The notes: generated from the letters alone by a model not told the origin. A DNA stretch of 64,000 nucleotides from Candidatus Bathyarchaeota archaeon (GCA_963827165.1 CAWGZR010000004.1:192001-256000); one strand, 5' to 3'. Positions 41,863 to 62,986 are shown, numbered from the stretch's first letter. Translations and numbers: made by a program.

Positions 41863-41879
41863 GGTTGGATAATCCAACC
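41863..41879. promoter_or_regulatory. operator copy 2, GGTTGGAT-A-ATCCAACC
   Basis: Perfect 8-1-8 palindrome just after TTCTTATA and 22 nt before the btuF ATG. Confidence 0.6.
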
Positions 41880-41901
41880 CAACACAAGGGGAATCAAAAG
41901 G

Positions 41902-42867
41902 ATGAGAAATAGAAATATCATTTACATCGCAACCGTAATAATAATCGTAGTAATAGCATCAAGCGCTTTCCTCTACATTAACCACAAATCACCAAGCCAA
42001 ACAAGTTCGCAAAAAAACATCACATTACTGGATGATGAAGGTTATACCACCAACCTAACCGCTCCTGCACAAAGAATCGTTTCATTAGCGCCCAGTTGCA
42101 CCCAAATCGTCTATGCAATCGGCCAAGGGAGCAAAGTTGTCGGTGTAACAACTTATGACGATTACCCATACAATTTCTCAGCGTGGGCAGCGGCAGGCAA
42201 CATGACAATCGACGGCGGCTACGGAACACCAAACATGGAAGCCATAGCGTCACTTCGCCCTGATCTAATACTCACTGACAGTATCAATGACGCAAGCCTC
42301 CCAAGCCTGAGGAACTTAGGATACAACGTGGTGGTTTTGAACCCAAGCACCATCAGCGGAATATGCAATGACATAACTTTGGTTGGAACTGCAACAGGCG
42401 CCCAAACCCAAGCAAACGCAGTAGCGACAAACATAACAAACACAATCAACGACATATCGGCAAAAATCGCTGGTTTGAAAGAAGCCCCAATGAAGGTCTT
42501 TTATGAAGTCTGGACTCCACCGCTTATGACCGCTGGCTCGACAACTTGGATTAACGACGTCATAAGCAAAGCAGGCGGCGCCAACATATTTGCCAACGAA
42601 ACCGACCAGTTCCCAACAGTTGCCTCCGAAACAGTAGTTTCACTTAATCCCGACGCAATATTCTTACCAACCGAAATGGGACAAACACCATTCTACGGAA
42701 GCGTGTCCCAAGTCGAAGCTCAACCTGGATGGAACACAATCAGCGCAGTTAAAAACAGCCATGTCTACGTAATCGACGGAGATTTGTTCTCCGAAGCTGG
42801 TCCAAGAGTTGCTGACTGCGTTTACGCCGTCGCCGCTGACTTGTATCCGCAACTTTTCACCTCCTAA
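41902..42867 (+). CDS. btuF: cobalamin/iron-chelate ABC transporter substrate-binding protein (BtuF-like)
   Basis: QRIVSLAPS, VGVTTYDDYP, E.I.SLRPDL, GPRV; ATG 41902 gives an N-terminal TM anchor. Confidence 0.82.
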   Translation: MRNRNIIYIATVIIIVVIASSAFLYINHKSPSQTSSQKNITLLDDEGYTTNLTAPAQRIVSLAPSCTQIVYAIGQGSKVVGVTTYDDYPYNFSAWAAAGNMTIDGGYGTPNMEAIASLRPDLILTDSINDASLPSLRNLGYNVVVLNPSTISGICNDITLVGTATGAQTQANAVATNITNTINDISAKIAGLKEAPMKVFYEVWTPPLMTAGSTTWINDVISKAGGANIFANETDQFPTVASETVVSLNPDAIFLPTEMGQTPFYGSVSQVEAQPGWNTISAVKNSHVYVIDGDLFSEAGPRVADCVYAVAADLYPQLFTS

Positions 42868-42891
42868 CCTCTTTTTTTGTTGTGACACATA

Positions 42892-43971
42892 ATGAGCGAA
42901 GGCAATATCGAAGGAACATACAGTAAACGTTCATCACGATGGAAAGTAATCTTAGCCGCGCTAGTGTTAGCTCTCGTTTTGACCCTTATAGTTTCTCTTA
43001 ACATAGGTTATGCTTCGATACCTTTTTCTCAAATTCTAGCCATAATAGGCAAGCAAATTCCATTCCTAGGCGCCTCAATAAATTCATCTTCAATATCACC
43101 CTCTAGCCAAGCAATTATCGTTTTAATTCGTCTGCCACGTGTGCTCGCCGCCGCTCTGGTCGGCGCTGGTTTGGCTGCGGCGGGTGTAATTTATCAAGGC
43201 ATTTTCCGAAATCCCATGGCTGACTCATATTTGCTAGGCGCCTCAGCAGGGGCATCGGTGGGTTACTCCATTGCCGTTTTGTATGTTTCGTCCGCCTTGA
43301 CGATTGTAGGTTTGGGCATAGCGCAGACTTTCGCCTTCATTTTTGCCTTGCTGACCGTTTTTCTAGTATTATTCATTTCAAGAGTCGGACACAGAATTCC
43401 CATAACTACCCTGCTGCTTTCCGGTGTGGTTGTGAACATTTTTCTTTTGGCTATGGAAACACTTATGGAGCTTCATTCCGGGCAAGCACTCACGGGCATA
43501 ATTGCTTGGCTCGCAGGCGGATTCTCAGATATCGTCTGGCTCCAAGTATACGCAATATTCCCATTCGTCATCATCGGCATAGCCATAACGTTCTTTTTCA
43601 CCCGCGACCTAAACATGCTTTCCATGGGAGACGAAACCGCGCAGCATCTTGGAGTGAACACGGAAAAAGTTCGTCAACTCCTTCTTGTCATAGCTTCTTT
43701 GATGACGGCTGCAGCGGTCGCCATAAGCGGTGTCATAGGCTTTGTAGGCTTAATAATTCCGCATATGACTAGGCTGGCGATTGGACCTGACCATCGCATC
43801 CTTCTACCTGCTTCAGCTGTTGTCGGAGCCATGTTCTTGGTGATCTGCGACGCCGTTGCACGAGTTGCCACGGGAGCTTCTGAATTGCCAGTTGGCGTTA
43901 TAACTGCCCTTGTCGGAACGCCCTTCTTCATATACCTACTCAGGAGAAGAAAAACAACCTATTCACTTTGA
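42892..43971 (+). CDS. btuC: ABC permease (BtuC/FecCD family)
   Basis: IRLPRVL, QGIFRNPMAD, IGFVGLIIPH, PVGVITALVGTPFF. Confidence 0.85.
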   Translation: MSEGNIEGTYSKRSSRWKVILAALVLALVLTLIVSLNIGYASIPFSQILAIIGKQIPFLGASINSSSISPSSQAIIVLIRLPRVLAAALVGAGLAAAGVIYQGIFRNPMADSYLLGASAGASVGYSIAVLYVSSALTIVGLGIAQTFAFIFALLTVFLVLFISRVGHRIPITTLLLSGVVVNIFLLAMETLMELHSGQALTGIIAWLAGGFSDIVWLQVYAIFPFVIIGIAITFFFTRDLNMLSMGDETAQHLGVNTEKVRQLLLVIASLMTAAAVAISGVIGFVGLIIPHMTRLAIGPDHRILLPASAVVGAMFLVICDAVARVATGASELPVGVITALVGTPFFIYLLRRRKTTYSL

Positions 43972-43981
43972 GGCGAAAAAA

Positions 43982-45291
43982 ATGGTGTCACTAAATATCG
44001 ATGGTGTCGAATGCCGTTACGGCTCAATAAAAATCTTAGAGAACGTCAGCATTTCAGTTAAGGCAGGCGACTTCGTAGGCATCCTTGGACCCAACGGCTC
44101 CGGAAAATCAACCCTTCTCAAAAGCATAAGCCGAACTCTTAAACCTTCCAAGGGCGCAATCATTCTCAACGACAAGGACATCTACACTCTAAAAAACATC
44201 GAAGTCGCAAAACAGTTGGCTGTGGTTCCGCAAGACAACACCATCAGCTTCAGCTTTACCGCCTTGAGGTTGTTTTGATGGGGCGCAACCCTCACATGGA
44301 AAGGTTCCAGATGGAAACCGAAAGTGACATGGCGATCGCCCGACGAGTTATGAATTTAACGAACACGTGGCATTTAGCGCCCAGGCCCGTAAACGAGTTA
44401 AGCGGCGGTGAGAGGCAACGCGTTATTATTGCCCGGGCGCTGGCGCAGGAGCCTAAAGTTTTGCTTTTGGATGAGCCCCTCACTTATCTGGACATCATCA
44501 ATCAGCTGGAAATCATGGATTTGATCAAGTCGCTTTGTGTAACACAGGGAATCATTGTTATGGCTGTTGTCCATGACCTAAACCTTGCCGCACGGTACTG
44601 CAACAACGCTTTGCTTCTTAAAAACGGAAAAGTTTATGCCGCCGGACCCATAGATAAAGTGCTAACCAGTGAAAACATAAAGAGCGTCTTCAATGTGGAA
44701 GCCATGGTGAAAAAAAACGCTGTTACCGACTCACTATACATTATTCCACTATCACCTCCAAAATCCTCGCCACCTAGAAACTGCTCAATTCACATAATAA
44801 GCGGTGCAGGAACGGGAACTGTCCTAATGAAAACTCTTCAGGAAGAAGGCTACAACATCACCGCGGGCGTTCTTAACGTCTTAGACACCGATTTTGAAAC
44901 CGCCCAATATCTCAATATACCCGTAATAAGTGAAGCCCCATTTTCTCCTATAACCGAAAAAACCCGCAAGCAAACTTCGACATAATGAAAAAAGCGGGGT
45001 ATGATCGTCATAACATCAGTTCCGTTTGGCTACGGCAACCTCTCTAACCTAGAGTCGGCGTTTGAAGCGGTTAAGCAGGGAGTCACAAATATACGTGATA
45101 GAAGAGGAGCCGATGGAAAGCCGAGACTTCACAGGCGGAAAAGCCACCGCATTGATCGAAGAGCTCAAGAAACAGGCGCCGTTTTCATCAAACACGCATC
45201 CGAACTGCCAGCCTTGGTCAATGCAAAACATGACTTAATGAACTGCAGAAAAACGGGCACAAAGAGGTCCCAGGTCACACAAAAAAAATAA
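43982..45291 (+). CDS. btuD: ABC ATP-binding protein (BtuD-like) with C-terminal extension, split by frameshifts into three ORFs
   Basis: GPNGSGKST in ORF1; LSGGERQR and LLLDEP in ORF2; VPFGYGNL in ORF3. Confidence 0.78.
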
Positions 45292-49715: not shown

Positions 49716-50015
49716 CTATGCTTTTTTAGCCCTTGCAGCCCTCTTTTTTCTGTATTTTTGTATTATCTTTTCAATGTCATCTTGCGTTAACTCGCCGTAT
49801 TTTGCTATTCTTTCATCGACTCTTTTGTACATGGCCTCAATCTCCTTCGATAAGTCCGGCTCCACAAATTTCTTCAATATCACCGCGTCGTCGCACTCAT
49901 ACACTAGAAATTTTGTTTTAGGTTTGAGACCCATTCGTGACCTTATTTTTGCAGGTATAACAACTTGACCTTTTTGGCTAAGAATCGTAAGTTCAGCCTT
50001 TTCACTTTGAGTCAT
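49716..50015 (-). CDS. AbrB/MazE-family DNA-binding protein (orphan antitoxin)
   Basis: SQKGQVVIPAKIR..MGLKP. Confidence 0.85.
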   Translation of the reverse strand: MTQSEKAELTILSQKGQVVIPAKIRSRMGLKPKTKFLVYECDDAVILKKFVEPDLSKEIEAMYKRVDERIAKYGELTQDDIEKIIQKYRKKRAARAKKA

Positions 50016-50165
50016 TCACGTTAACCCCGAATATAATCTTACATTCTTACCTAAAATAGATACCTCATAAAACGCTTTCCAAGCTAAAACGCTGGCATGA
50101 ATTGCTCCTGTTGGTTAGGCAAGTTTGGGCCGGGATGATTGAAAGGATTTATTGCTAAATAGAGC

Positions 50166-50553
50166 CTACCCTTTGTCAGCAAAACGAAACCGTTGCTGGA
50201 TTATTCGTATCTTTCTTTTTGTAATAATAACGAGTTTGTTTCGTATTTCTTTGAGATTTATTTTGTTTTGAGCTAAATTTAATGTTTCAATAATGTTGCT
50301 AGGAGGTGGAGGGTTTGCTTTTACGATTATGACTGTGAGTAATGCGCCTTTTTGAAAGGTCCGGTATAGTTGGGCAAAACCTTTGTCTAACGTGACGATT
50401 GACATTTTGTTTTTTTATGGCATAGTCCGCTATTGCGCTGTCTTTGGCGCTTTTAAGGAGCAAATTCGAAACGTTTACTGTTTCAAAACCTTTCTTAAAT
50501 AACCATTCCTCGACATCCTTTGGAGTGTTTTCATCGATTATAATCTTAGCCAA
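50166..50553 (-). CDS. DUF5615 PIN-like toxin, frameshifted in a homopolymer near 50410-50416
   Basis: KIIIDEN, AKDSAIADYA then IVTLDKGF in the next frame. Confidence 0.75.
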
Positions 50554-50573
50554 AGGATAAGCAGCAGCTCTTT

Positions 50574-50801
50574 TCAGATCACTATGGTTTCTTCAGTTTC
50601 TAAGCATTTTGAAGCATAAGTGAGCGCAGCTTTGATATCTTCTTTTTTTAGAGTTGGATATTGACTTAGTATTTCTTTTTCGGTCATACCACTTGCTAGA
50701 AGCTCGATGACGAGATAAACTGGAATACGAGTTCCTTCAATGACTGGTTTCCCAGATAGAACTTCGGGGTCAATCATTATCCTATCCATGAGCTCTTCCA
50801 T
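50574..50801 (-). CDS. DUF433 antitoxin-like protein
   Basis: DPEVLSGKPVIEGTRIPV...YPTL..EDIKAAL.YA. Confidence 0.9.
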   Translation of the reverse strand: MEELMDRIMIDPEVLSGKPVIEGTRIPVYLVIELLASGMTEKEILSQYPTLKKEDIKAALTYASKCLETEETIVI

Positions 50802-51009
50802 ACGAGTTCACTACTGCCATCACATTAACTAACATCAATACAAGTCATTAGTTAGGCAAATTACAATTGCCCCATGTCAACTAACGTAATTCACATTAAT
50901 AACATATAAGTAAAGTCGCAATTCTTACTTATCATTATCATCTCACGCACGTTTATATTATCGTTTTATACTATAATATTATCTCCCAATAGGACATGAT
51001 GAAAAAGTA

Positions 51010-52080
51010 ATGGAAAAAATAACAGAAACACCTCTTCACAGGATCTTAGACACAATCTCATCTCACTTAGGCGAACCATTATCAATCAACCAACTAACCG
51101 AAAAAATCAAAGAAAAATATGGTGCCGCATATTACTCAAATATCTACAAACAAGTCAAAGAATTAGAAAACAAAAGATTACTAACAACCACTTCCTATGG
51201 AAAATCAAGCATAATAAAACCCAATTTCGACAATGAACTAATAATAGAATTATTTGCACAAATGGAAATCGAAAACAAAATAAATTTCCTAAAGGATAAG
51301 AACGAATTATTAATTGTCCTATCAAGCATGAACAAATCTCTGGATGACATTTGCTCAATAAAGTCAATAACCTCAATAAATCCTGAAAAGAATTCTGAAC
51401 TCAACAGATTGGAACTGCTCTTTCTCTTAAGAAAAACCATTGACTACAAAGATGCGACATTTGAGCTTTATAACAAAATGAGACAATTACGGGACCAACA
51501 TAACTTGAAGATTGATAGCCTTATTTTAAACGAGGATGATTTTTCTTCATTGATAAGATCAAATGAAATAAATCCCTTAAGGGAAGCTTTTGCCAAAGAG
51601 ATAACCATCTTCTGTCCACAGGCATTCTGGAGTCAAATTAAGAAGATCTCGGAAGAATCCGAAATCAAAACAATAGACGCAGAGACAAAACCTAACCACA
51701 TTTCAGAAACAGACCTAATTTACAACCTCAACCGATTTGGCTACAAAGAATTTGGCAACAAAATATCCCAAGCTAACAAGTACTGCATTGAATTCATAAT
51801 CACAAGTTTACTACTTTCAGATGATGCAAGAAGATTAGAGGCCATCCCAATAATTCTCGCAAAAAATAACTATCGCAGTAATTTATTGGCATTTCTTTGC
51901 CAAAAGTACAGGATTTCGGGCAAACTCTTGGGACTGCTGATAAGTCTCCAAAACATTAAACCAAACGATAAAATTAGGGACACAATTAGTCTTTTAGAGA
52001 TTCTCAAAGAGGAGCAAGAAACACCAGCTGACGAAGAGAGCATAAGGCGAAATATGAGGTTATATAATGCCATTAGATAA
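51010..52080 (+). CDS. AT-rich hypothetical protein with N-terminal wHTH
   Basis: LSINQLT...YSNIYKQVKELE..YGKSSII; strongly AT-rich relative to flanks. Confidence 0.7.
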   Translation: MEKITETPLHRILDTISSHLGEPLSINQLTEKIKEKYGAAYYSNIYKQVKELENKRLLTTTSYGKSSIIKPNFDNELIIELFAQMEIENKINFLKDKNELLIVLSSMNKSLDDICSIKSITSINPEKNSELNRLELLFLLRKTIDYKDATFELYNKMRQLRDQHNLKIDSLILNEDDFSSLIRSNEINPLREAFAKEITIFCPQAFWSQIKKISEESEIKTIDAETKPNHISETDLIYNLNRFGYKEFGNKISQANKYCIEFIITSLLLSDDARRLEAIPIILAKNNYRSNLLAFLCQKYRISGKLLGLLISLQNIKPNDKIRDTISLLEILKEEQETPADEESIRRNMRLYNAIR

Positions 52081-52218
52081 AGGTCAAAACCCGAAAATAT
52101 CGGCTAGCTTGATCACTTTTTCGTTAGCAAAATAGTTCGCCGTTATGATCCTAAACGTGGACTAACTTGCACAAATTTGCTTCGAGTCATAGAGCCATCA
52201 TCGTATGATCTTTTTGTT

Positions 52219-52617
52219 TCAGTTAACAAATTCAACGCCTTCCAAGTCTTTGAACCATTTATCCCCTGTTAGAAATTTTATGTTAGACTTTTTTGCAAGA
52301 TAATATCCCATAGCATCGGCATAAGATATGTCATGACCAATTTTCTTTAGTTTTAACCGCAGTTTCATGGCGCCTTCAATATCCGCGATCCCAAAGTCCA
52401 TTGCATATTTAGCAAATGCTTTGACCACTTCGGAGGCAGCTTGTGCGCCATGAACTTCAAGAGTGCGGTAGTATATTTCCATTAAATTTAGCTTCGTTAG
52501 AATGCCGTCGTCTTCTTCGAAAAAAACCCTGTAGTTTGGGTTATCGCTCAGATAAGCTAGAACTGCGTAGCTGTCATAGAAGAACCGTTTAGATTTCTGC
52601 AAATCATGCCCAGCCAT
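52219..52617 (-). CDS. vapC: VapC PIN toxin
   Basis: FYDSYA, NLMEIY, SYADA, FLTGD. Confidence 0.88.
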   Translation of the reverse strand: MAGHDLQKSKRFFYDSYAVLAYLSDNPNYRVFFEEDDGILTKLNLMEIYYRTLEVHGAQAASEVVKAFAKYAMDFGIADIEGAMKLRLKLKKIGHDISYADAMGYYLAKKSNIKFLTGDKWFKDLEGVEFVN

Positions 52618-52834
52618 GTTTCATTTCGTCTTTCTCATGCTGCAAATCCTTGAAAGGATATTTGCCTCTAAGACAACTAACGTCAGATGCTTTTCTCACC
52701 GTTACTTCCACTTCTTCGCCTTCTTTGAGCCCTTCTTTGTCCACCAGCGATTTCGGCAGCACTATGCCTAACGAATTTCCCCAACACTTAATTTTTGTCT
52801 TCACTATCATAATTAGACATGTATAACTACGCAA
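52604..52834 (-). CDS. AbrB/MazE-type VapB antitoxin
   Basis: KCWGNSLGIVLPK; overlaps the vapC start. Confidence 0.85.
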   Translation of the reverse strand: MRSYTCLIMIVKTKIKCWGNSLGIVLPKSLVDKEGLKEGEEVEVTVRKASDVSCLRGKYPFKDLQHEKDEMKHGWA

Positions 52835-52972
52835 ATTTAAGACTTTCCCAACTCTCCTTCAAATGGAGACAAGCGCTCTGGCTTGTCCCTAAATTAAACG
52901 CTCATTTTGTAAAAGGGATTTAGCGAGCATAAATTACACACATCTTAATATTTTCTAGCTGACTTATGGGGG

Positions 52973-53221
52973 TTGGTAGAAGTAAGAATGATTGGTTATT
53001 GGCAAGAAAGAATTGTAGTTGACCCAAAAGTCTTGGTTGGAAAACCAGTTATCAAAGGCACTCGGCTTTCGGTTGAGTTCATTTTGGGTCTTCTTGCTAA
53101 CGATTGGACGACCACGCAGATACTGGACGAATATCCCCAGTTGAAACGAGAAGACGTAATGGCCGTTTTGAAGTATGCCGCCGAGTTGGTCAAGGAAGAG
53201 AAGGTATATTCATTATCCTAA
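52973..53221 (+). CDS. DUF433 antitoxin-like protein
   Basis: DPKVLVGKPVIKGTRLSV...YPQL..EDV. Confidence 0.88.
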   Translation: MVEVRMIGYWQERIVVDPKVLVGKPVIKGTRLSVEFILGLLANDWTTTQILDEYPQLKREDVMAVLKYAAELVKEEKVYSLS

Positions 53222-53300
53222 AGTTCCTTGCGACGAAAACATCTCTGGCAAAATGGTCAGTTGCATGTGTAAGTAACCTGTATCGCCACAGTTTTGGGAA

Positions 53301-54086
53301 CTAGAGGTTTTCTGGTCCGAACGCTGGTTCATCGGCTACTGAAGCAACTATTTGTTGGGCGTACTCTTCCTGCTCTTCGTTGCCGCTGACCGCAAGCCAG
53401 CATGCTCCCTCAGCTCCACAGACCCCGCCTGAAGCAATCAACTCAACGCAGGCGCCAGTTAAAGCCGCCAACGCATCCAACTCGGTGAAAACCTCGCCTG
53501 GAACCGGCAGCAAACGGCTTCCACAAGCACCCGGCGCGTTAAGCTTCTGTGCAAGCACAAATAAATCGCCGTTCACCCGCTTCTCAAGGCCCACAGGGAT
53601 TATGAGTTTTACTCGGCGACCAACAACCGCGGGCAAAGCCAAACCAATCGTTCCCGCCTTTGGGTGACCAATCAAAACCGCCGCTTGCCTCCTCGTCAAG
53701 TCCAAAGCGTTTGCACCCTTCAAGATGACGTCGCCCTCCTTCAGAGAGTCTACAACATCCTCAATCGACTTCCCCTTCTGCCAAACCCCCTTAACAATCA
53801 CAACGTCTCCCGGAAACGCGCTCACATCAGATAACCGCCCTGTTCCAGTCACCGGTTTTTTTGATGGCAGCGTTATGCCGCGGAAAAAATGTTTCCTCGA
53901 AAAATCACATGCGATCTGATGCGTCTTTAGTATCTCTTCAGCAACATATCCATTAGTTGTTCCAGCAACAATGACAACTGTTCCGTTCTTGAGCGCCTTT
54001 TTTACTGCAGGGTGGTTTGCCAGGGTCTTGGCGATTAAACGTTTTCCCGCCGCGGGAGTAATTACAAACTGCTTCAAAGTCAGCAC
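53301..54086 (-). CDS. conserved hypothetical protein
   Basis: 261-aa enzyme-like ORF ([31 protein letters not shown]); family not recognised. Confidence 0.75.
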
Positions 54087-54177
54087 CTTACGGAGTGTTA
54101 TTTGAAAGGTGCATTATAACAATTTTGTAGAGCAGAAGAGGGACGAAAAAAGAGTTTAATGCTCCTGGGCTCCTGGG

Positions 54178-54276
54178 TCAGATTTTGCAAGACATTGGGC
54201 ATGCCTTGAAGCAGTTCACTTTGCACGGGCAACTGGCAACGCAGTTTTCGACTACTACTGAAATATCGTGCAGCAT
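54178..54276 (-). CDS. 32-aa six-cysteine peptide (below ORF-track cutoff)
   Basis: Own translation MLHDISVVVENCVASCPCKVNCFKACPMSCKI*. Confidence 0.4.
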   Translation of the reverse strand: MLHDISVVVENCVASCPCKVNCFKACPMSCKI

Positions 54277-54342
54277 AAAGGCAAAGATAAATTTAAAAGC
54301 TGAAACTTCTGAGAACCCCGTATTAATGAGAGAAATCTAAGC

Positions 54343-54780
54343 ATGAGCCAGAATAAACGATTTATCAGATTGACTGCGAGAATCAGAAATATTGCCCAAC
54401 CAATGAAAAAACGGCGAGGCAAAACATTGCTTTTAGTTGCAGTTATTTCCTTCATGGTGGTCCTTGCCGACCCCATAAGCACGTATCTCGCATTAGAAAT
54501 GCCTGGTTTTTATGAAAAAAACGCGATCTCCAGATGGTGGTTAGAACATTACGGAATGCCCGGACTGTTTTTAGCTAACTTGCTTCCTTTCTTATTCTTT
54601 ATCCTCTTCTTTTTATTTGGGTACGCCGTCCTCTCATACGCCATCAATAAAAACTTCCAAAAAAACAAAAACATCGCGGATTGGTTAGTTTTCTTGTTTT
54701 TCTTAGGTGTCTTTGTTGCTTTAATTGTTTTGAAGGCGGAAGTGGTTTACAACAATGTACGGTTGCTACTTGGGCATTGA
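54343..54780 (+). CDS. small multi-TM membrane protein (DUF5658-like)
   Basis: AD.ISTY.AL...YEKN motif and three hydrophobic helices. Confidence 0.65.
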   Translation: MSQNKRFIRLTARIRNIAQPMKKRRGKTLLLVAVISFMVVLADPISTYLALEMPGFYEKNAISRWWLEHYGMPGLFLANLLPFLFFILFFLFGYAVLSYAINKNFQKNKNIADWLVFLFFLGVFVALIVLKAEVVYNNVRLLLGH

Positions 54781-55036
54781 TGCCTAGTCCGCGGTGTTAA
54801 AAAAACGCAGAAATATTTGACGGAATTCTATGCTAACAAACGACTGGGAGAGGCGTGTGAGAATTCCTAAATATAGGCTTGTTTTAAGAAGATTTGGGAA
54901 GAGTACATAGATGGTAAATACGTTGAATCCTGAAAAGACTCATCAAGTTGGGGACTTTGAATTCTATCCAAAAAAGATTCCCAAGGGATTGTTACTTAAA
55001 AGGTACATATGATAATTTTATTAATGAAATCTCAAG

Positions 55037-56149
55037 CTAAAGGGTTTTCACTTTGCATATTTCGTATACAATCAAATGCGGATACTTCAAGTAAAACTTG
55101 TACAAATGCGGATTTTCTTTTTTCAATTCAACACTTGGATCCGGCTCGTAAATCCTACAAATAGCCAAGTGATTCTCGCAAAGAGCGCTTGTCATTTCAT
55201 CAAGAGTAAACCAATGATGCGGATTATCCTTAGCCTTATACTCTATCCTGTAATTAGGCAAACGACCATGAAAACGTCCTTCCTTTGAATGCGTTATTCC
55301 TTTGGCAAGTTGACCAAAAAACGGATGCGCCTCAATAATAAAAAATCGTCCCTGATCCGTCAGAATTCTGCTGATTTCGCTTAAGGCTTTGGAGAATTCC
55401 TGATGGTTATGTGTTTTTCTGCAATAGTCAAAACTCACAACTGTATCTATCGCCACAACATAGTCAAAGTGTTTGCAAGGCACGTTTTTTGCGAAATCAA
55501 GAAAATCCCCCTGAAAAAATTCTTCGTTATCGAGACATAGCCTTTGTTTGAGATCGTTTGCTTTTTCAATTAGAAATGCGCTTCTATCAACACCGGTCAC
55601 GTGTGCTCCCAGTTTAGCCAGAATCGTGGAATAATATCCTGGGCCACATCCAAAGTCGAAGATCCTCTTTCCAGCTATTTTTTCTTTGGTGAAAAATTGT
55701 GTTACAAAATTTTCTACGCAATATTTGTAGTAGGTTCGGCTTTCAGGTCGTATATCTGAAACGTCGTCATAAAATTTCTTTTTAAACCATTTTTCCATAA
55801 TTCCCTGCGAATCATCATCTTCCTTCAAAGCTTTGGGAATTGCTGCTTTCATTGCTTTGTTAACCGCTGAAACCACCATAGCTTCGACGTTTTGCATGGA
55901 TCCATTTGAAGCATCATTGCCAATGATTTTTTCGCCAAATTCTGAGTTTAGCCATTCTTTGTATTGGGGCAACGTTTTTTCTATGACTTCATGGATTGTT
56001 GACTGCAGTCTTGCATAATCTTCTGGATCCAATTTTTCGTAAAGCTGAACTTTTTCTGAAGGTGCATTGTGGTGTTGATTTTGCTTTTCGGTTATTGCAG
56101 GCCTTTTAGGGAGGGGTTTAGTGTTTGGTTTATTTTTTGGCAAAAACAA
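55037..56149 (-). CDS. class I SAM methyltransferase with N-terminal precursor-like domain
   Basis: FDFGCGPG, GVDRS, QGDF; residues 38-110 resemble the 57917-58342 product. Confidence 0.88.
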   Translation of the reverse strand: MFLPKNKPNTKPLPKRPAITEKQNQHHNAPSEKVQLYEKLDPEDYARLQSTIHEVIEKTLPQYKEWLNSEFGEKIIGNDASNGSMQNVEAMVVSAVNKAMKAAIPKALKEDDDSQGIMEKWFKKKFYDDVSDIRPESRTYYKYCVENFVTQFFTKEKIAGKRIFDFGCGPGYYSTILAKLGAHVTGVDRSAFLIEKANDLKQRLCLDNEEFFQGDFLDFAKNVPCKHFDYVVAIDTVVSFDYCRKTHNHQEFSKALSEISRILTDQGRFFIIEAHPFFGQLAKGITHSKEGRFHGRLPNYRIEYKAKDNPHHWFTLDEMTSALCENHLAICRIYEPDPSVELKKENPHLYKFYLKYPHLIVYEICKVKTL

Positions 56150-56208
56150 TCAACGCCCTAATATGATCTCTCAAGATAATATTTATGGGTTTAGTGACTC
56201 CAAATTTG

Positions 56209-57795
56209 TCAATAATATGGAACGATTATTTTTATAGGATAATTTCTTTTCGAGCTTGCCGTTTTTCCCATGCTTAATCGGTTCCACTCCGAACGGAGAT
56301 TTTCAAATCGGTTGCTATCGGGCAGAGGTGAATAAAAATAACTATAATTATTTCCGGTTTTTTCTTTGCTCAGCTCAATTCCATATTCTTGCGGGTTATT
56401 GGAAATTTCTGAATCAGGCAAAACCCCAAAACGTGAAATGCTGACTTGATCAATAAATTCTTGGTTTTGCTCCAAGAAACCAACGGATTGTTCGAAATCT
56501 CTCTGAGTTTCTCCTGGAAAATCTACTATCATGAATGTCAAAACGCGAATGCCATTTTTTGCGGTATCGCGGATCACGTTTTTAGCCGTTTCTATGTCGT
56601 ACCCTTTTTTCATTTTACGAAGAATTCTCTGCGACCCAGATTCTATGCCAAACCACAAGCCTATGCAACCCGCCTGCCGCATTTTCCCAAGCAACTTGTC
56701 ATTCATTTCAGAACGAACTCTAGCCATGCCCATCCACTTCATTTCGACGTCTTCTTCAATCAATAAATCACAGAGTTTCTCCAACGATTTGATATTGCAA
56801 TTAATCAAACTGTCATTGAAGCGAATAGTAGAAACCCCATATTTTTCTTTGACATATTTGAATTCCGAAACTACGTTTTCCGGTGACCGCATCCGATACG
56901 TATTACCCCATAAACGTTTTTCAACACAAAAAACACAATCACCAATACAACCTCTAGATCCGACAACCGGCATTATAGGCACCCCAAACTTATTCTGAGG
57001 ATACTCCCACAACGGCAAATCATCGTAATCCGGAAAAGGCAAATCGTCAAGAGATTTAATTAAAGGTCGATCCGCGTTAGAAATAATTTTGCCGTTCTCT
57101 CTGTAGGAAATTCCTGCGATTCCCCTTAATGATTCTAAACTTCCGTTATAGGAAATAGCTACTTCAGAGATTGTCGATTCGCCCTCCCCTCGAACTATTA
57201 AGTCAATTTCGGGGTGGATTGACAGAACTTCTTCCCATGAGGCGAATGCTGGACCGCCCAAAACAGTTAAAATTCTCGGTTGAATTTTCTTTAATTTGCG
57301 TGAGAGAAGTACACTCCAGAGCAAACCAGTGTGGGTTATTACATGAAATCCCACAATACTTTGACTTTTGGTATCGGCGGCAACCTCTAAAAACCAATCA
57401 TTACAAATTTTCCAAACATCTAACAATGTTGCCTGTTTTGATTCTTCGCTGATAATACCTTTGAACACCGAATTTGAATGGGGATAACCTAATTTATCAG
57501 AAGCCTCTCTTAGCATAATTTCTTCGAAAAGTTTTTGGCCATCTTGAATTGTTGAATAAATTTCTGCCTCGGGAACCTTTGTCCATTTCGCCTTTCCCTT
57601 GTTATCGCTTTCTCTTAAGATTTTTGCAGGGTTGATTTCGAGTCCTTGATGGAAAAGAGTCAAGTTAAAAGATTTAATGTTTAGATCAAAGGTGCTTACC
57701 TTTTGTTTGCTTGCCTTTAAGGTGCTTGTCAAGTATGGAATTGCAGGATAAGGAACCAAGGATGAAACTGGCGGGATGCAAAGAAAAACAGGCAA
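56209..57795 (-). CDS. cobalamin-dependent (class B) radical SAM enzyme
   Basis: VLGGP, IVRGEGE, LDDLPFPDY, SRGCIGDCVFC, RSPENVVSE, GIESGS. Confidence 0.9.
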   Translation of the reverse strand: MPVFLCIPPVSSLVPYPAIPYLTSTLKASKQKVSTFDLNIKSFNLTLFHQGLEINPAKILRESDNKGKAKWTKVPEAEIYSTIQDGQKLFEEIMLREASDKLGYPHSNSVFKGIISEESKQATLLDVWKICNDWFLEVAADTKSQSIVGFHVITHTGLLWSVLLSRKLKKIQPRILTVLGGPAFASWEEVLSIHPEIDLIVRGEGESTISEVAISYNGSLESLRGIAGISYRENGKIISNADRPLIKSLDDLPFPDYDDLPLWEYPQNKFGVPIMPVVGSRGCIGDCVFCVEKRLWGNTYRMRSPENVVSEFKYVKEKYGVSTIRFNDSLINCNIKSLEKLCDLLIEEDVEMKWMGMARVRSEMNDKLLGKMRQAGCIGLWFGIESGSQRILRKMKKGYDIETAKNVIRDTAKNGIRVLTFMIVDFPGETQRDFEQSVGFLEQNQEFIDQVSISRFGVLPDSEISNNPQEYGIELSKEKTGNNYSYFYSPLPDSNRFENLRSEWNRLSMGKTASSKRNYPIKIIVPYY

Positions 57796-57916
57796 AATTT
57801 AGATCATCGTTGACAGTTTATGGAAATTGGTGTTTATGGTTGATTCCATCTTTTGTGGCGTGAATTGACGAACTATTCTTCATTTGAGAGCGTTGGTTTC
57901 TGAACCGCACTGCTTC

Positions 57917-58342
57917 TTATTCGAATTGATCTTTCAAAGCTTGACGAATTGCGCCTATCATTGCCTCGTTAACAGCATTAACAACCATATCGTCCATTTT
58001 TCTATTTGGCGTAGGGCAATCGTTACCGCATGAACTGCACAAAGGTGTCGGACAGTCGTTTCCACATGAACTACAAAGCGGCGTCGGACAATCGTTGCCA
58101 CATGAACTGCACAAAGGTGTCGGGCAATCATCAGCCGCAATCAAAGAAGTAGCTACCCACTGCTGATATTCCGGTAGAGTTTTTGCAATGGTATCTCGAA
58201 TTGTTGACTGAAGTTTTGCATACATCTTAGGATCCAGTTTTTCAACAGGCGGCATTTTTGCTAAGAGTTTGTTTAACCGTATCTTTTGTGCTGGGGTCAG
58301 TTTTTTTGAGGAAGCGTTAGATGTAGATTTATTTTTTGACAA
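57917..58342 (-). CDS. putative RiPP precursor with tandem Cys-rich cores
   Basis: (DCPTPLCSSCGN)x3+DCPTP between an N-terminal leader and a helical follower; sits between two radical SAM genes. Confidence 0.82.
   Translation of the reverse strand: MSKNKSTSNASSKKLTPAQKIRLNKLLAKMPPVEKLDPKMYAKLQSTIRDTIAKTLPEYQQWVATSLIAADDCPTPLCSSCGNDCPTPLCSSCGNDCPTPLCSSCGNDCPTPNRKMDDMVVNAVNEAMIGAIRQALKDQFE
58007..58129 (-). repeat. 36-nt coding tandem repeat, 3.4 copies
   Basis: Copies are identical in amino acids and differ only at synonymous sites. Confidence 0.9.
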
Positions 58343-58377
58343 AAATATCCCTACAATGATGTATTGAGTCGTTTTAT

Positions 58378-59832
58378 TTAATGTTTGTTGTGAAGCAAAT
58401 CCTGAGCAGGATTATTTGGTAGAATTTTTTGAGTTCTGGTTTTTTGAGATTCCATCAGGAAATTGTATGAAATTAGGAGCTTTAGTATTTCATTTTGAAA
58501 AGTGCAGAAGTAGTCCTCTTTAATGCCAAGTTGCCCAGTCTTAACATAAATATCGTATGCGCATCCCCCGCCGCAAATTCCAACCGCAGCACACCTCATA
58601 CAGTCTTTATTCTTAAGCGTGCCCATTTCCAGCCACGTATAAAACAACGGTTCATCCTGAACCTTCAAATCATCTTTAATTGGAATCTGATACTTTCCCG
58701 ACGGATAAAACGCATGGCACGGCCCCACTGTCCCAGTTGGCGAAAAAAACAGCAGTTGACCAAACGCCGGGCAATCGTAAATATGGAATATTTCTTTGAA
58801 AAAATAATTGGCCCGCCGATTATCAATACGGTCTTCAAACATTTTTAGTTCTTTTGCTTTTAAGTAGGCTCCAAAAAGATGATGGGCAAGTTGTTTGGGG
58901 TCTGGAACCTCAAATTCACTTGGCTCTTTAAGCCGGGTCAACAAGTTAAAGCCTATGGTTCTGACGCCTAATTTCTGGATAAATTCTATTATTTCTTCTG
59001 CATGCATATAGTTCTGCTTCGTGATTGTACATGATATTCCCGTGTTTACACCCGCCTCTTTTAGAAGCGCCAACGCTTTGAGTGCTGCGTAAAAGGTTTC
59101 TTTTCCATCCGTGAAAACACGGTTTTTGTCAATGGCAGCCCACCCATCAAGCGACAACCCCACGGTAACATCATGCTGCTTAAGTTTCTTAGCCATAGCT
59201 TCAGTTATTAGGCTTCCATTTGTGACACAAGAAAAAAAGAATTTTCCCTTAGAAGCCGCCTCAAGCTTCTCAATAATATAAAACACAATTTCACTATTAC
59301 TAAACGGCTCACCCCCATAAAATGTGACCCTGTATTCAGGAACTTGCTTTGCCTCGTTAACTATAACATTTATGACTTTATCAGCCAAATCCTTAGACAT
59401 CACTGTACTTGGACCTTTGAGAGAGTTCTCTATAAAACAGTAACCGCACCTAAAATTGCAGAAATCGGTAACCAAAATGTAGGCAAGGTTGGTTTGTGGT
59501 TTTTTTCTAAGCAAGCTAGCCGCAACAGTTTCAAAAACTTTTTCCCCATTAAAGCCTTGAGGCACCAAAAATTTTAGTTCCATTAACTCCTTAACGTCCT
59601 TGCTATGCGCGCCCTTACTCAGATCTGCCAAAACCTTTTCGTATTTTTTGTTGGTTAAGTACACTTTCTTTAGAGTTAAAGAATTGAAAAGACACTTCGT
59701 CGATTCATCAACATTGAACAAGTGGACAAACGGCGAAAGAACCAATTGAGCAAGCTCTTCGCGGGGCATTTGCACAGAAGGCTGGTTCTTATTCACAATC
59801 GCATTAACCGCCTCAGATCGTTTCTTGCTCAT
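58378..59832 (-). CDS. radical SAM/SPASM peptide maturase with putative N-terminal RRE
   Basis: CNFRCGYC, FYGGEP, VTNGSLI, LSLDG; DCPAF..GPCH and CMRC..GICGGGC..C. Confidence 0.9.
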   Translation of the reverse strand: MSKKRSEAVNAIVNKNQPSVQMPREELAQLVLSPFVHLFNVDESTKCLFNSLTLKKVYLTNKKYEKVLADLSKGAHSKDVKELMELKFLVPQGFNGEKVFETVAASLLRKKPQTNLAYILVTDFCNFRCGYCFIENSLKGPSTVMSKDLADKVINVIVNEAKQVPEYRVTFYGGEPFSNSEIVFYIIEKLEAASKGKFFFSCVTNGSLITEAMAKKLKQHDVTVGLSLDGWAAIDKNRVFTDGKETFYAALKALALLKEAGVNTGISCTITKQNYMHAEEIIEFIQKLGVRTIGFNLLTRLKEPSEFEVPDPKQLAHHLFGAYLKAKELKMFEDRIDNRRANYFFKEIFHIYDCPAFGQLLFFSPTGTVGPCHAFYPSGKYQIPIKDDLKVQDEPLFYTWLEMGTLKNKDCMRCAAVGICGGGCAYDIYVKTGQLGIKEDYFCTFQNEILKLLISYNFLMESQKTRTQKILPNNPAQDLLHNKH

Positions 59833-59967
59833 TTACCCACCTAAAAAGAAAACCATCTCAATGTCCCTAAACTAACAAATTATTAAAATCTTTCCTAAAA
59901 ACTCCAACCTAATCTCGTGTATGTTCGAAAGCGCAAAGCAAAAAGCTGTTATACTGCAACAATTTAA

Positions 59968-60774
59968 TTGAATAGTAGGAGAGGCGCCTACTTGGCGATT
60001 ATTGTTGTTTCTGATTTGCATCTGGGATTTGATAGCTCCGACAAAGCAGCATTTATCCGTTTTCTAGGAAAACTTCAATCTGACCCCACTGTTACCGATC
60101 TGGTGTTTCTTGGCGACATCGTGGATATGTGGAGGCGGGATTCCTCAGGCGTTTTTCTTGAGAACCATGATGTTCTCGACCTAATCATCGAACTCCAAAA
60201 GAAGATGCACGTATATTACGTGGCAGGAAACCACGATTTCCATGTTCTCAAGTTGCAAGGCTTCGGATATCCCATCGACTTTAAAATGGAATTGACCCTT
60301 CAGCAAGACGGCGTGAATTACAGGTTTGTTCACGGCTGGGAATTTGACGATCTGCAGCATGAGCACTTCATGGAATCGCTCTGCCACTCAATGTCCGACA
60401 ATAAAGGCGAACGCGACAACAACATCTGGGCCGCACTTGGCCGCTACGAAAGTGACTTTTCCCGCTTTTTCTCGGTGATCGATAGGGGAAGAAAACGCCG
60501 AATCGCAGAGATGCTGCAGCTAGGTCCCGAGCAGAGGCTCATAGAAAGCCTGAAGGGTGTAGAAAAGAAGGCCCGCGCCACAGTTCAGCCTGGAGAAGTT
60601 CTTGTCTTCGGGCACACTCACAGACCCTTCGTGAATAAGGAGGAAAACCTCGCAAATACCGGATCATGGGTTAAAGCCGCGCCTGTCCACAACACCTATG
60701 TGCGGATAGAAGGCGGCAAACCCAAGCTATTCGTATTCGAAGGAGCCGAGATTACGGAAAGAGCCGACATCTAA
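59968..60774 (+). CDS. calcineurin-like metallophosphoesterase (LpxH-like)
   Basis: SDLHLG, GDIVD, GNHD, HG, GHTH, NTGSW. Confidence 0.88.
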   Translation: MNSRRGAYLAIIVVSDLHLGFDSSDKAAFIRFLGKLQSDPTVTDLVFLGDIVDMWRRDSSGVFLENHDVLDLIIELQKKMHVYYVAGNHDFHVLKLQGFGYPIDFKMELTLQQDGVNYRFVHGWEFDDLQHEHFMESLCHSMSDNKGERDNNIWAALGRYESDFSRFFSVIDRGRKRRIAEMLQLGPEQRLIESLKGVEKKARATVQPGEVLVFGHTHRPFVNKEENLANTGSWVKAAPVHNTYVRIEGGKPKLFVFEGAEITERADI

Positions 60775-60880
60775 CTATTTCCTGTTTGATTTTTGTTAGA
60801 GGTTCCAGAGTGCGTTTGCGCTGTGTTTGGCTTTCTCAATGATTGACTGCACGGTAGCTTGGCTTAAACCGGTTTTCCGC

Positions 60881-61642
60881 TCAATCGCCGACGCGTCTTG
60901 GCTTACTAGCTCGTTTTATGAGAACAATTCCGGAGTCAACTAGCCTCTGTCTTGCTTCGACGTTTACGTCTCTTAGGCAACTCAATGGATACAGCTTGTT
61001 TTCCAAAATAGCGTCTCTTAATCCGAAATGTTCAGGTGAAGTCCAACCAATCTGAATAAGATTTTTACATTTGCCATATTGCATTGCATGCTCCGAGTAC
61101 CGGGTGTTAGTAACAATAACTGCACGGTCAATTCTCAAATCCGTTAACCCCGCCGCGAAGGCATCCGACACATCTTCTAATACTGCCCAAGCTATTCGAC
61201 TCTCATCCAACCCCGTGAGCGCATGATAGCTGAAATGATGCTTAACCTCAACAAAATAAGTAACCCCCTCTTTGCGTACAATGCCATCAACCTCATGTTC
61301 CCCACATTTACCCCTAAGAACCCGATTAGGCGTAACCTCAAAACCAGTATGCGCCAACAAAACCTGAATAAACAATTCAAACTCCGGCTTAGGCTCCATC
61401 AAACTTATGCCCTGCTTCAAATCGTAAAGGTGACCAATACCAGGCCTGAACTCCTGCATAAACGAGAAAATAAGCTGAAGAATCAACTGAGTAGTAATAC
61501 CCTCATAAAGTCTTTTTTCAATTCGATCAGCAACTTCATTCGCAGTGTTGCTATCCGCACCCATCCTCAAGCACGTCTGCACAATTTTTTCTCTACTAAA
61601 GGACTGTTTAGAACCGTCTGCTTTGGTTACCCGAAACGCCAC
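60881..61642 (-). CDS. ATP-cone plus Mrr-like restriction endonuclease domain protein
   Basis: VTKADGSKQSFSREKI; FE..I..LL...GF, HEVDG...VEVKHH, VTNT; 3' end probably frameshifted. Confidence 0.82.
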   Translation of the reverse strand: MAFRVTKADGSKQSFSREKIVQTCLRMGADSNTANEVADRIEKRLYEGITTQLILQLIFSFMQEFRPGIGHLYDLKQGISLMEPKPEFELFIQVLLAHTGFEVTPNRVLRGKCGEHEVDGIVRKEGVTYFVEVKHHFSYHALTGLDESRIAWAVLEDVSDAFAAGLTDLRIDRAVIVTNTRYSEHAMQYGKCKNLIQIGWTSPEHFGLRDAILENKLYPLSCLRDVNVEARQRLVDSGIVLIKRASKPRRVGD

Positions 61643-61815
61643 GCTGAATGCACCATTAAAGAGAAAAATACACAGAGTGCAGTTTTAAGTCTATTCAATT
61701 CTCAAGCCGGTTAGCTGTATCTTCTGGGGGCGTTTCGATATTGTGGCTGTCGGTTCACAGTCACACATCTTAAAATAACCTCAACCGAGTTAAGGGTAAG
61801 TGAGGTTTTTTGACA

Positions 61816-61974
61816 ATGGGAGCACTTGATTTTCTTTTCGTAGTTGCCGCGATACTCATCATACTTTGGCTACTTGGCTTTGTTTTATTCAGCCTTGGCA
61901 CCATCATATGGGTACTGCTTGTCATAGCCCTCATCATAATAGCTGTCCGATTACTTTCAGGACGAAGAATATAA
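61816..61974 (+). CDS. 52-aa membrane protein (lmo0937/DUF5670-like; below ORF-track cutoff)
   Basis: MGALDFLFVVAAILIILWLLGFVLFSLGTIIWVLLVIALIIIAVRLLSGRRI, GAGG upstream. Confidence 0.78.
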   Translation: MGALDFLFVVAAILIILWLLGFVLFSLGTIIWVLLVIALIIIAVRLLSGRRI

Positions 61975-62013
61975 CATTCGCCGGAAAGTATCCAAAAGTA
62001 ATCAATTAAATAA

Positions 62014-62754
62014 ATGGTAAATTTGGAGGAGAAAAAAATGAACGATATACTTAGTATTTTTATTGAGGGTGGAACCTTCAGGATGTTTGTCTCAGCGATT
62101 CAAGCAACAGAGATAGTTGATACTCTTAGAAGTGTTGGGCCGTTCACTGTTTTTGCACCCGACGAGGAAGCGTTTGAAAAAATTCCCAAAGGTGAATTAG
62201 ACAGTTTTCTTAAGGACACGCCAAAGTTAAAGGCAATTCTAATGTATCACATTGTCGCCGGAAAATATACAATTAATGAAATCAGCAAAATGAAGACCCT
62301 CAAAACAATTCAAGGCCAAGAAGTCAAAATCGACGCACACAAATGGCACCTTCACGTGAACCCAAAAATCAACGACGCACTCATCACAAATTACAACCTC
62401 GAAGCAGACAACGGCATAATACATGTAATAGACAAAGTGCTTATGCCAAATATGGAGCTAACTTGCCCCGTCTGCGGAATGGGCTTCATGACCATGGAAG
62501 ATTTAACTGCTCACACTAAAATGGGCCATGTTGCTGAGAAAGCCATAGAGCCAATGCCGCCCGCTGAAACTATGCCTGCCGGCGAATTAACCAATGAATC
62601 AATGTCTGGCATGTCATCTCAAGAAACACCAATGAAGGGTTTAGAACCTGATCGGGTCAAATGTCCTGATTGTGGAAAAACCTTCATGAGTCATTCGGAG
62701 ATGGCACGTCACAGAGATTCAATGCACCATGAAACAAAAGGACACGACGAATGA
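62014..62754 (+). CDS. fasciclin (FAS1) domain protein with two C2H2 zinc fingers
   Basis: GPFTVFAPD.EAF, ILMYHIV, ADNGIIHVIDKVL; CPVC..H..H and CPDC..H..H. Confidence 0.88.
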   Translation: MVNLEEKKMNDILSIFIEGGTFRMFVSAIQATEIVDTLRSVGPFTVFAPDEEAFEKIPKGELDSFLKDTPKLKAILMYHIVAGKYTINEISKMKTLKTIQGQEVKIDAHKWHLHVNPKINDALITNYNLEADNGIIHVIDKVLMPNMELTCPVCGMGFMTMEDLTAHTKMGHVAEKAIEPMPPAETMPAGELTNESMSGMSSQETPMKGLEPDRVKCPDCGKTFMSHSEMARHRDSMHHETKGHDE

Positions 62755-62986
62755 TATTTCCTCAGCAGATTTAAGAAAGATCAGTCGTAGCGTTATCGGC
62801 CATCCCCAAGGAATTACGATTGCTATTTCTTAAAAGTTGCAAAATGTGATCAAAACCAGATTAAGAGCAGGATCAGTTTTTTTTTTGTTCCAGGTTTTTC
62901 TAATTCGGTTACGTAGACTTCAAGTGCGCATAGGGATTAGTTAAAGTTGAATTGAGGTTTATCCGAAACCTCTTTAGAGGTTAGAA

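Follow-up and report, generated by a model that had tools for sequence, protein, structure and literature searches.

What do two radical S-adenosylmethionine (SAM) enzymes and a methyltransferase do to a small protein whose cysteine repeats lie in the middle of the chain, and is the outcome a short peptide or a modified protein? This question is raised by a four-gene cassette at positions 55037 to 59832 of a 64,000-nucleotide stretch of DNA from Candidatus Bathyarchaeota archaeon (GCA_963827165.1 CAWGZR010000004.1:192001-256000), the whole of which is referred to here as the window. On balance, we think it probable that the cassette modifies a small cytoplasmic Cys-repeat protein, the product being thioether-stapled (ranthipeptide/Crp-like), methylated and probably uncleaved, with the thioether and C-methyl chemistry inferred from family resemblance. 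That SPASM enzymes act on peptides or proteins with Cys repeats is known already, and the cassette is an uncharacterised relative of such systems. What is new is the family itself, its central-core architecture, the combination with a putatively cobalamin (B12)-dependent radical SAM enzyme, and a substrate-derived domain on the methyltransferase (MT).

The cassette consists of four co-oriented open reading frames (ORFs) on the minus strand, with intergenic gaps of 35, 121 and 59 nucleotides (nt), found at exactly the coordinates that an initial annotation of this DNA had given for them. The genes and their parts, with the basis of each assignment, are as follows.

58378..59832, minus strand: SPASM gene, radical SAM/SPASM peptide-maturase-like enzyme, 484 amino acids (aa); Pfam Radical_SAM and Cys pattern
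57917..58342, minus strand: precursor (substrate) gene, 141 aa, with a basic Ser/Lys-rich tail, a helix, a Cys-repeat core and a further helix; no named family
58007..58129, minus strand: core, (DCPTPLCSSCGN)x3 followed by DCPTP, precursor residues 72-112; Tandem Repeats Finder
56209..57795, minus strand: B12 gene, putative B12-binding-domain radical SAM enzyme of class B type, 528 aa; Pfam and NCBIfam
55037..56149, minus strand: fourth gene, class I MT, 370 aa; Pfam, AlphaFold2 and Foldseek
55814..56149, minus strand: precursor-like N-terminal domain of the MT, residues 1-112, a short linker replacing the Cys repeats; BLASTP against the precursor
55037..55813, minus strand: catalytic domain of the MT, class I SAM-dependent, residues 113-370; Methyltransf_31 and others

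No indel within the four ORFs was seen in the covering short-read soil metagenome contigs, which come from two studies. These contigs break inside the repeat, and no copy-number variant was seen among them. No RNA record was listed among those carrying the cassette sequence, the 13 records all being DNA contigs from soil, peat and freshwater sediment.

A Cys-repeat core between two conserved helices

The precursor contains three copies of DCPTPLCSSCGN and a final DCPTP, and all of its 10 Cys lie within this core. The repeat, already described in the initial annotation, was verified both in the ORF product and by Tandem Repeats Finder (36-nt period, 3.1 copies, 79% matches, score 156 at 58017-58129). 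Comparison of the three 36-nt units shows 7, 4 and 8 nucleotide differences, all of them synonymous, an outcome that random substitution gave in 0, 0.0015 and 0 of 20000 trials. Differences that are solely synonymous indicate that the repeat has been selected at the level of the protein, and is not a product of chance or of recent slippage.

The core sits mid-protein, not at the C-terminus, and its flanking on both sides by conserved helices is unusual for a ribosomally made and post-translationally modified peptide (RiPP). In the AlphaFold2 model of the precursor, computed from a 49-sequence alignment with a mean predicted local distance difference test score (pLDDT) of 60.5, helices span residues 17-28, 33-36, 38-70 and 114-140, and residues 72-109 of the core fall below pLDDT 50 and are predicted to be disordered. 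The flanks are invariant at 14 positions across the 49 sequences, and the conservation of the C-terminal helix is on par with that of the N-terminal one.

The precursor belongs to no Pfam or NCBIfam family. Searched as a whole against Pfam at E<=10 it gave chance-level matches only, none of them to Fer4; the ESM Atlas held no usable match, and a PDB profile search with the precursor alignment returned only a chance-level one (E 0.25). Homologs collected by a word-indexed search form 179 clusters at 90% identity, all unnamed or hypothetical, and a profile search of 1.84 billion representatives retrieved 18 clusters at E<=0.001, one of which is the MT and another a false positive.

Among 120 listed homologs we counted 263 full units, with one, two, three, four and five units in 22, 60, 32, 5 and 1 proteins, respectively. 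The unit logo is C1 P2 [T/V]3 [E/P/Q]4 [L/I/V]5 C6 [S/G]7 [S/A]8 C9 x10 N11 [D/Q/E]12. C1, P2, C6 and C9 are invariant in the counted units, N11 is kept in 253/263 and position 12 is D, Q or E in 262/263; after the last unit comes a terminal C-P-x-P. Since 17 of the 120 homologs have another residue in place of the very first Cys, the functional unit is probably C-x2-C-x-N-x-C-P. Other Cys-rich cores are found on the same scaffold (P0245, P0249, P0243). Conserved flanks around a core that varies in copy number and type are a RiPP signature. The initial annotation had proposed a check for conserved synteny and core variation, and the core indeed varies in copy number and sequence between conserved flanks.

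A SPASM enzyme close to maturases of peptide Cys

The identities initially assigned to the three enzymes (SPASM radical SAM, cobalamin radical SAM and class I methyltransferase) fit their Pfam and NCBIfam matches. The SPASM enzyme scores 79.2 bits with Pfam Radical_SAM and carries the motif CNFRCGYC, and its C125-x3-C129-x2-C132 is invariant in 49/49 members of its clade and 7/7 out-group members. The Pfam SPASM model gave no match at E<=0.01, and the SPASM assignment is read from a seven-Cys pattern in the protein. SPASM enzymes with two auxiliary clusters follow the pattern CX9-15GX4C ... CX2CX5CX3C ... C; the corresponding residues here are C354-x12-G-x4-C372, C411-x2-C414-x5-C420-x3-C424 and C443, invariant throughout the same 49 clade members and in all seven distant relatives, as is C268.

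Among NCBIfam models, the best match is the FibroRumin maturase (TIGR04136; 184.7 bits, cut-off 400), followed by PapB (NF047865; 144.1 bits, cut-off 340). Further scores were obtained with CefB (115.7), QhpD (109, cut-off 453), the SCIFF maturase TIGR03974 (100.8, cut-off 425) and the CrpC-type model TIGR04463 (91, cut-off 525). Alignment with the FibroRumin, QhpD and SCIFF profiles starts at residue 30-41. Among solved structures, CteB is the nearest (5wgg; E 3.7e-23), with the alignment beginning at residue 82. This proximity to peptide-Cys maturases, namely FibroRumin, PapB, CefB and QhpD among families and CteB among structures, argues for thioether stapling of the precursor.

The same comparisons leave room for a rival, which we regard as unlikely, in which the SPASM enzyme acts on the Cys-repeat protein without making ranthionines and forms sactionine (Cys to alpha-carbon), C-C or ether cross-links, epimerises residues, or oxidises Cys as in anaerobic sulfatase maturase (anSME). 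No equivalog cut-off is reached, so homology does not fix the chemistry; the cyclophane formers AmcB, YhhB and GrrM, the ether/C-C-forming DynA and anSME score 90-106 bits vs 144 for PapB, and anSME is the third-best solved structure. The core fits this rival less well, as the residues that never vary, or in the case of Asn11 hardly vary, are Cys, Pro2 and Asn11, and there are no aromatic residues, which cyclophane formers need. Moreover, both the top family matches and the closest structure belong to enzymes that form Cys thioethers.

As a side observation, GNAT acetyltransferase domains are fused to P0175 and P0177, two of the closest relatives outside the SPASM clade (44-48% identity), and to the more distant P0207 (36% identity). 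These fusions are 584-595 aa long and come from short metagenome contigs.

Distribution of the cassette and the fate of its product

The initial annotation had made co-occurrence of the radical SAM homologs with the peptide the test of its proposal. Across 120 genomes of the window's genus, the precursor is present in 22 (G000 included), the SPASM clade is present in the same 22, and 98 hold neither; in a synteny set of 30 loci, with one genome per species, the precursor adjoins the SPASM gene in 25. A sample of 401 genomes from the class yielded four matches, all in the window's genus and none in 130 other genera, and an earlier draw of 24 genomes from the order's other families yielded none.

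The order SPASM-precursor-B12-MT is found in 21 of the 30 loci, and in seven of these a second precursor separates the B12 gene from the MT; the B12 enzyme is present in 21 of the 30. Apart from two loci that have only the B12 gene missing, the rest comprise one with SPASM gene and precursor only (L057), one with a SPASM fragment and precursor (L060) and five orphan precursors. Three 'type II' loci (L057, L068, L069) combine a SPASM enzyme 67-74% identical to that of the window with a 171-196-aa precursor bearing a basic C-terminal tail. Metagenome contigs add two arrangements, precursor-MT-SPASM (L088) and SPASM-precursor-MT (L092).

A contig from a close relative illustrates turnover of the locus. 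L105:7979-14575 is collinear with window 51003-62778 at the orf356, orf261 and fasciclin genes, and the window's ~54.1-61.7 kb (membrane protein, cassette, phosphoesterase and ATP-cone/Mrr gene) is replaced there by 1.5 kb; only a 3' remnant of the MT is kept, on the other side of the fasciclin gene. The cassette behaves as a gained-and-lost unit that is patchily distributed.

Twenty-nine of the 30 loci are labelled Candidatus Bathyarchaeota archaeon, and the remaining one, L057, is labelled Candidatus Sulfotelmatobacter. Its SPASM enzyme is 74% identical to that of the window and stands beside a type II precursor. We rejected the label as a sign of bacterial spread: the 10.4-kb contig is possibly mis-binned, and mis-binning seems likelier than transfer because the contig carries a small CxC protein otherwise seen only in loci from Bathyarchaeota-centred searches. 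This protein of ~80-90 aa, with the motif CxC...[ILV]PDL[KR][AM]M...H, occurs within 1-7 kb of several type II precursor/SPASM loci (L057:7197-7445, L068:5869-6129, L071:14701-14952, L073:8948-9196 and L046 near 351). It was rejected as a core component of the cassette, given its variable distance from some type II loci and its absence from the window.

No other gene family is common to more than 6/30 loci, and none of those seen is a protease or exporter; neither kind of gene was found in the window flanks. The initial annotation had pointed out that the cluster has no protease or exporter, and the lack of any conserved beside the cassette favours the alternative it had held open, a modified intact protein. 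The competing possibility is a conventional secreted RiPP, in which the helices are leader and follower, removed by a protease/exporter encoded elsewhere to release short cross-linked peptides. Conserved flanks with a hypervariable, copy-number-variable core are the classic signature of a RiPP precursor, and multi-core precursors are known in other RiPP classes. We consider this possibility quite unlikely: the 30 loci share no protease or transporter family, the precursor has neither a signal peptide nor a double-glycine-like site between units, which abut directly (N-D-C), and conservation of the C-terminal helix extends to all 49 aligned precursors. In addition, the MT has its own copy of both helices (see below), which suggests that they work as a folded unit. 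The lack of a protease or exporter, together with the conserved C-terminal helix, makes an intact modified protein the most likely product.

A methyltransferase with a precursor-derived domain, and the B12 enzyme

The MT scores 70 bits with Methyltransf_31, and Methyltransf_31, _11, _25 and _23 are all above their Pfam cut-offs. Its SAM motif is DFGCGPG in 15/17 MT sequences and DLGCGPG in the other two. The Rossmann core is modelled by AlphaFold2 at pLDDT 80-94, and Foldseek matches to class I MTs, CypM and BpumL included, go down to E 2e-11.

Homology to the precursor extends over the first ~110 residues of the MT (BLASTP E 6e-15) and spans both flanking helices; in the AlphaFold2 model, helices 42-71 and 85-127, which precede the Rossmann core, match the precursor helices. 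Compared with Pfam at E<=10, this N-terminal part gave chance-level matches only. The domain was found in all 17 intact MTs aligned, with a 15-20-residue linker containing no or one Cys in place of the repeats. Helix 1 and the linker both have a median pairwise ratio of nonsynonymous to synonymous substitution rates (dN/dS) of 0.26, and the catalytic domain has one of 0.13. These comparisons show the N-domain to be a degenerate, Cys-poor paralog of the precursor scaffold that is under purifying selection. The long type II precursors resemble it more (mean 74.5 bits, n=11) than the other precursors do (62.0 bits, n=109). MT relatives elsewhere (48-62% identity, 251-328 aa) lack the N-domain, which is therefore a lineage-specific capture of a precursor gene.

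The B12 enzyme matches Pfam Radical_SAM at residues 279-440 (68.4 bits) and carries the motif CIGDCVFC. Its best NCBIfam match is ApyD (NF050148; 164.8, cut-off 750), and the RiPP C-methyltransferase subfamily TIGR03975 gives 155.9 (cut-off 281.85).

The gene content described in the initial annotation stood, and to it are now added the precursor-derived N-domain of the MT and the position of the core mid-protein between helices. Every part of the initial interpretation that can be tested in silico held, and the interpretation is supported.

Proposed mechanism

The substrate would be a helical scaffold displaying a disordered loop of one to five Cys-rich 12-residue units. The SPASM enzyme would take hydrogen from an acceptor residue and bond that acceptor to a Cys sulfur, so that each unit would acquire several small thioether rings of ranthionine type. 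As acceptors, position 12 (C9-x-x-[D/Q/E]12), position 4 (C1-x-x-[E/Q]4) or the near-invariant Asn11 would be the likeliest; they are proposed by analogy with the ranthionines of CrpC and with PapB and NxxcB. The B12 enzyme probably methylates core carbons that are unactivated, and O-, N- or S-methyl groups are probably added by the class I MT, which would find its substrate via the scaffold copy, either by pairing with the substrate helices or by taking their docking site on the radical SAM enzymes. The product most likely stays whole, as a modified protein in the manner of CrpA and QhpC, and is not a short secreted peptide.

The first of these two modes of recognition was modelled. The predicted complex of precursor residues 12-141 with MT residues 30-130 scored 0.52, vs 0.01 for the best of three controls, and passed a mark that is passed by 116/157 solved complexes and 2/215 mismatched pairs; scores of 0.60 or less are given to only 18 of the 157 solved complexes and to both mismatches that passed, and by the calibration of the tool such a pass is more often wrong, unless the pairing was likely beforehand. 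The runs agree in at least 78% of contacts, with partner pLDDT of at least 63. We take the pairing of the precursor with the MT N-domain as a lead suggested by modelling, and not as a result.

This calibration is one of several points that weigh against a stapled, methylated and MT-recruited protein. Helix 2 of the MT N-domain is weakly constrained (dN/dS 0.60). Both radical SAM enzymes miss every curated NCBIfam cut-off, and the Pfam B12-binding match of the B12 enzyme (residues 139-212) reaches 30.7 bits, just under its cut-off of 32.1. At E<=10, Pfam detected no domain resembling PqqD or a RiPP recognition element (RRE) in residues 1-115 of the SPASM enzyme or in residues 1-140 of the B12 enzyme. 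Two of the 30 loci (L035, L061) keep SPASM gene, precursor and MT and have no B12 gene, and the type II loci are without cassette-type B12 enzyme and MT; the absence of the B12 gene or MT from some loci indicates that neither modification is obligatory. At least one gene is split, through assembly error or decay, in 12 of the 21 full cassettes, and nine have all four genes uninterrupted. Finally, the unit C-x4-C-x2-C-x3-C-P resembles the ferredoxin motif CxxCxxCxxxCP, and its C-x2-C-x3-C-P the tail of that motif.

This resemblance, three Cys per 12-residue unit, and the metal-related role that the authors of the Crp study, in the part of it considered here, suspect for their own protein (PMC13692751) would fit an unmodified metal or Fe-S protein (metallothionein- or ferredoxin-like) that serves the radical SAM enzymes as cluster/metal donor or electron carrier, an explanation that is very unlikely given that the precursor matches no Fer4 or other metal-binding Pfam family even at E<=10, that its loop, predicted to be disordered, offers no hydrophobic core in which a cluster could be buried, and that a substrate, more than a cofactor carrier, would be expected to show strict genome-level co-occurrence with a maturase-type SPASM enzyme and RiPP-like core variation. 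Thioether stapling and methylation of the Cys-repeat protein would leave room for metal binding by the modified product.

A wider family around the methyltransferase

A metagenome scan with second-tier MT relatives retrieved 13 out-group loci. In 10 of them the MT adjoins a SPASM enzyme that is 28-32% identical to that of the window; three of these enzymes were scanned against NCBIfam, and FibroRumin was again the best match (214-234 bits, below the 400 cut-off). In nine of the 10 loci, a Cys-rich protein is encoded upstream, with a conserved leader, a huge central core (as many as 44 Cys) and, at the C-terminus, a helix that is also conserved. Independent cases are fewer than these counts, because the pairs L074/L075 and L077/L078 are near-duplicates. 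We rejected these out-group precursors as homologs of the Bathyarchaeota precursors (hhalign probability 0.2%), the likeness being architectural only. Leader mimicry by the ~45-residue N-extensions of the out-group MTs was likewise rejected, no convincing similarity being visible by eye.

The out-group contigs, from peat and soil, are probably bacterial. Their Cys-rich proteins are 104-257 aa long with up to 44 Cys, e.g. in (CAPPVDCA)n or (CDCACSA)n, and the giant cores are preceded by a PY[AT]GEP..SA..KVAGK leader and followed by a ..TRFGDIE.IL.. helix (L074:5760-6344, L078:610-1275, L081:4368-5141 and 5145-5681, L084:1304-1729, L086:2129-2443). Each of them has as neighbours a FibroRumin-like SPASM enzyme and an MT related to that of the window. 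These giant central-Cys-core proteins look like an undescribed family. In one locus, L079, the out-group MT accompanies three other radical SAM genes and an 82-aa ORF (L079:6124-6372) whose start, '...LTDPSFRKAL..NPEKAL..', resembles Nif11/NHLP-type leaders, and the MT family may accordingly serve several RiPP types.

A broader proposal, doubtful at present, would join these observations: the product would be an intracellular two-helix hairpin with a methylated, thioether-ringed loop, the MT would be recruited by substrate mimicry, and the cassette and the out-group loci together would define a broad undescribed 'central-core' class of Cys-stapled proteins in soil and peat microbes, possibly metal-handling. 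If this is true, substrate mimicry by the MT would be a form of recruitment so far undescribed in RiPP-like pathways, and an N-domain that mediates recognition would open a new way of engineering how tailoring enzymes receive their substrates. FibroRumin-like SPASM enzymes and the shared MT family elsewhere point to a wider uncharacterised class, into which the window cassette may offer a tractable entry. It unites three methyl- or radical-transfer enzymes, and its compact 141-aa substrate with three identical units should be easily followed by mass spectrometry.

To our knowledge, experimentally characterised archaeal radical-SAM modifications of peptides or proteins are few, and the cassette adds Bathyarchaeota, an uncultured soil/peat lineage, to them. 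In a literature search outside which lay subscription journals and bioRxiv supplements, no paper was found on the cassette family, the core string or 'FibroRumin'; a search for a Bathyarchaeota radical SAM RiPP or a Bathyarchaeia ranthipeptide, again with subscription journals outside it, gave no match. Three supplementary text files of PMC13692751 contain neither 'Bathyarchae' nor the core string nor TIGR04136.

Genomic surroundings

Most of the window has a G+C content of ~0.45, and the cassette region one of 0.39-0.40. Small toxin-antitoxin-like genes form a run just upstream of the cassette, at 49716-53221; among them are an AbrB/SpoVT-like ORF, a gene for a PIN-domain protein (52219-52617) and a pair of short ORFs with the motif '...PVI.GTR..V..' in common. 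These genes and the dip in G+C to 0.35-0.40 fit a variable island. Two genes away from the cassette, at 60881-61642 on the minus strand, an ATP-cone is fused to an Mrr-type restriction endonuclease domain, which is an unusual pairing.

The window also contains genes for cobamide salvage and uptake: a CobD/CbiB family gene (135-1166, minus strand), a CbiZ adenosylcobinamide amidohydrolase (36189-37307, plus strand) and a BtuF/BtuC/BtuD-like ABC transporter (41827-44982, plus strand; Peripla_BP_2, FecCD, ABC_tran). They could supply the cofactor of the B12 enzyme but are 10-55 kb from the cassette. The ATPase of the transporter is split into ORFs 43910-44275 and 44275-44982 (plus strand), which match the first and second halves of ABC_tran; this is either a frameshift or an assembly error.

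Comparison with known systems

The CrpABC system of Methanococcus voltae, published in 2026, is the one close archaeal example that was found; as far as the source considered here goes, its SPASM enzyme, CrpC, was found by experiment to form ranthionines on a Cys-repeat protein, with the Cys preceding the acceptor in motifs such as CAVD and CPLV (PMC13692751). By the same partial account, the two systems share an archaeal host, a SPASM enzyme beside a tandem Cys-repeat protein, no assigned protease or exporter, a second protein with the N-terminal region of the substrate, and a product regarded as a modified protein (PMC13692751). They differ in that CrpC belongs to TIGR04463, whose cut-off the window enzyme misses by far (91 vs 525). 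CrpA, as described there, is a ~29 kDa protein with a 17-residue motif repeated ten times at its C-terminus, whereas the window protein has 141 aa and 12-residue units mid-protein. Within that description, Crp has no B12-radical SAM enzyme or methyltransferase, and in the window the scaffold paralog is fused to an enzyme.

With PapB (freyrasin) and CteB (SCIFF/thermocellin), the window system shares SPASM, motifs for three [4Fe-4S] clusters and repeated Cys motifs in the precursor. The precursors of PapB and CteB are short bacterial peptides with a C-terminal core, and they are not known to have a follower helix or a scaffold fused to a tailoring enzyme. FibroRumin (TIGR04136) is the best model for both window and out-group SPASM enzymes, with all scores below 400, and since no paper using the name was found there is no chemistry to transfer. 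QhpD is a SPASM enzyme that places several Cys-to-Asp/Glu thioethers in QhpC, a small functional subunit of quinohemoprotein amine dehydrogenase; the window enzyme differs in falling below the QhpD cut-off (109 vs 453), and no dehydrogenase subunits or peptidase are nearby.

For the B12 enzyme, the closest comparison is with ApyD, which, according to the part of the source used here, beta-methylates Tyr of a RiPP (PMC10635010). As in ApyD and TIGR03975 members, what is putatively a B12-binding-type N-terminal half precedes the radical SAM core and the gene adjoins the precursor, whereas the window enzyme is under both cut-offs, no RRE was detected by the Pfam search described above, and the core of the window precursor has no aromatic residue. 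The MT invites comparison with borosins, in which a methyltransferase is fused C-terminally to its own core, which is the substrate. Here, too, an MT and precursor-derived sequence are found in one polypeptide; in contrast to borosins, the fusion is N-terminal, the scaffold has been kept and the Cys repeats have been lost, and a separate precursor gene remains.

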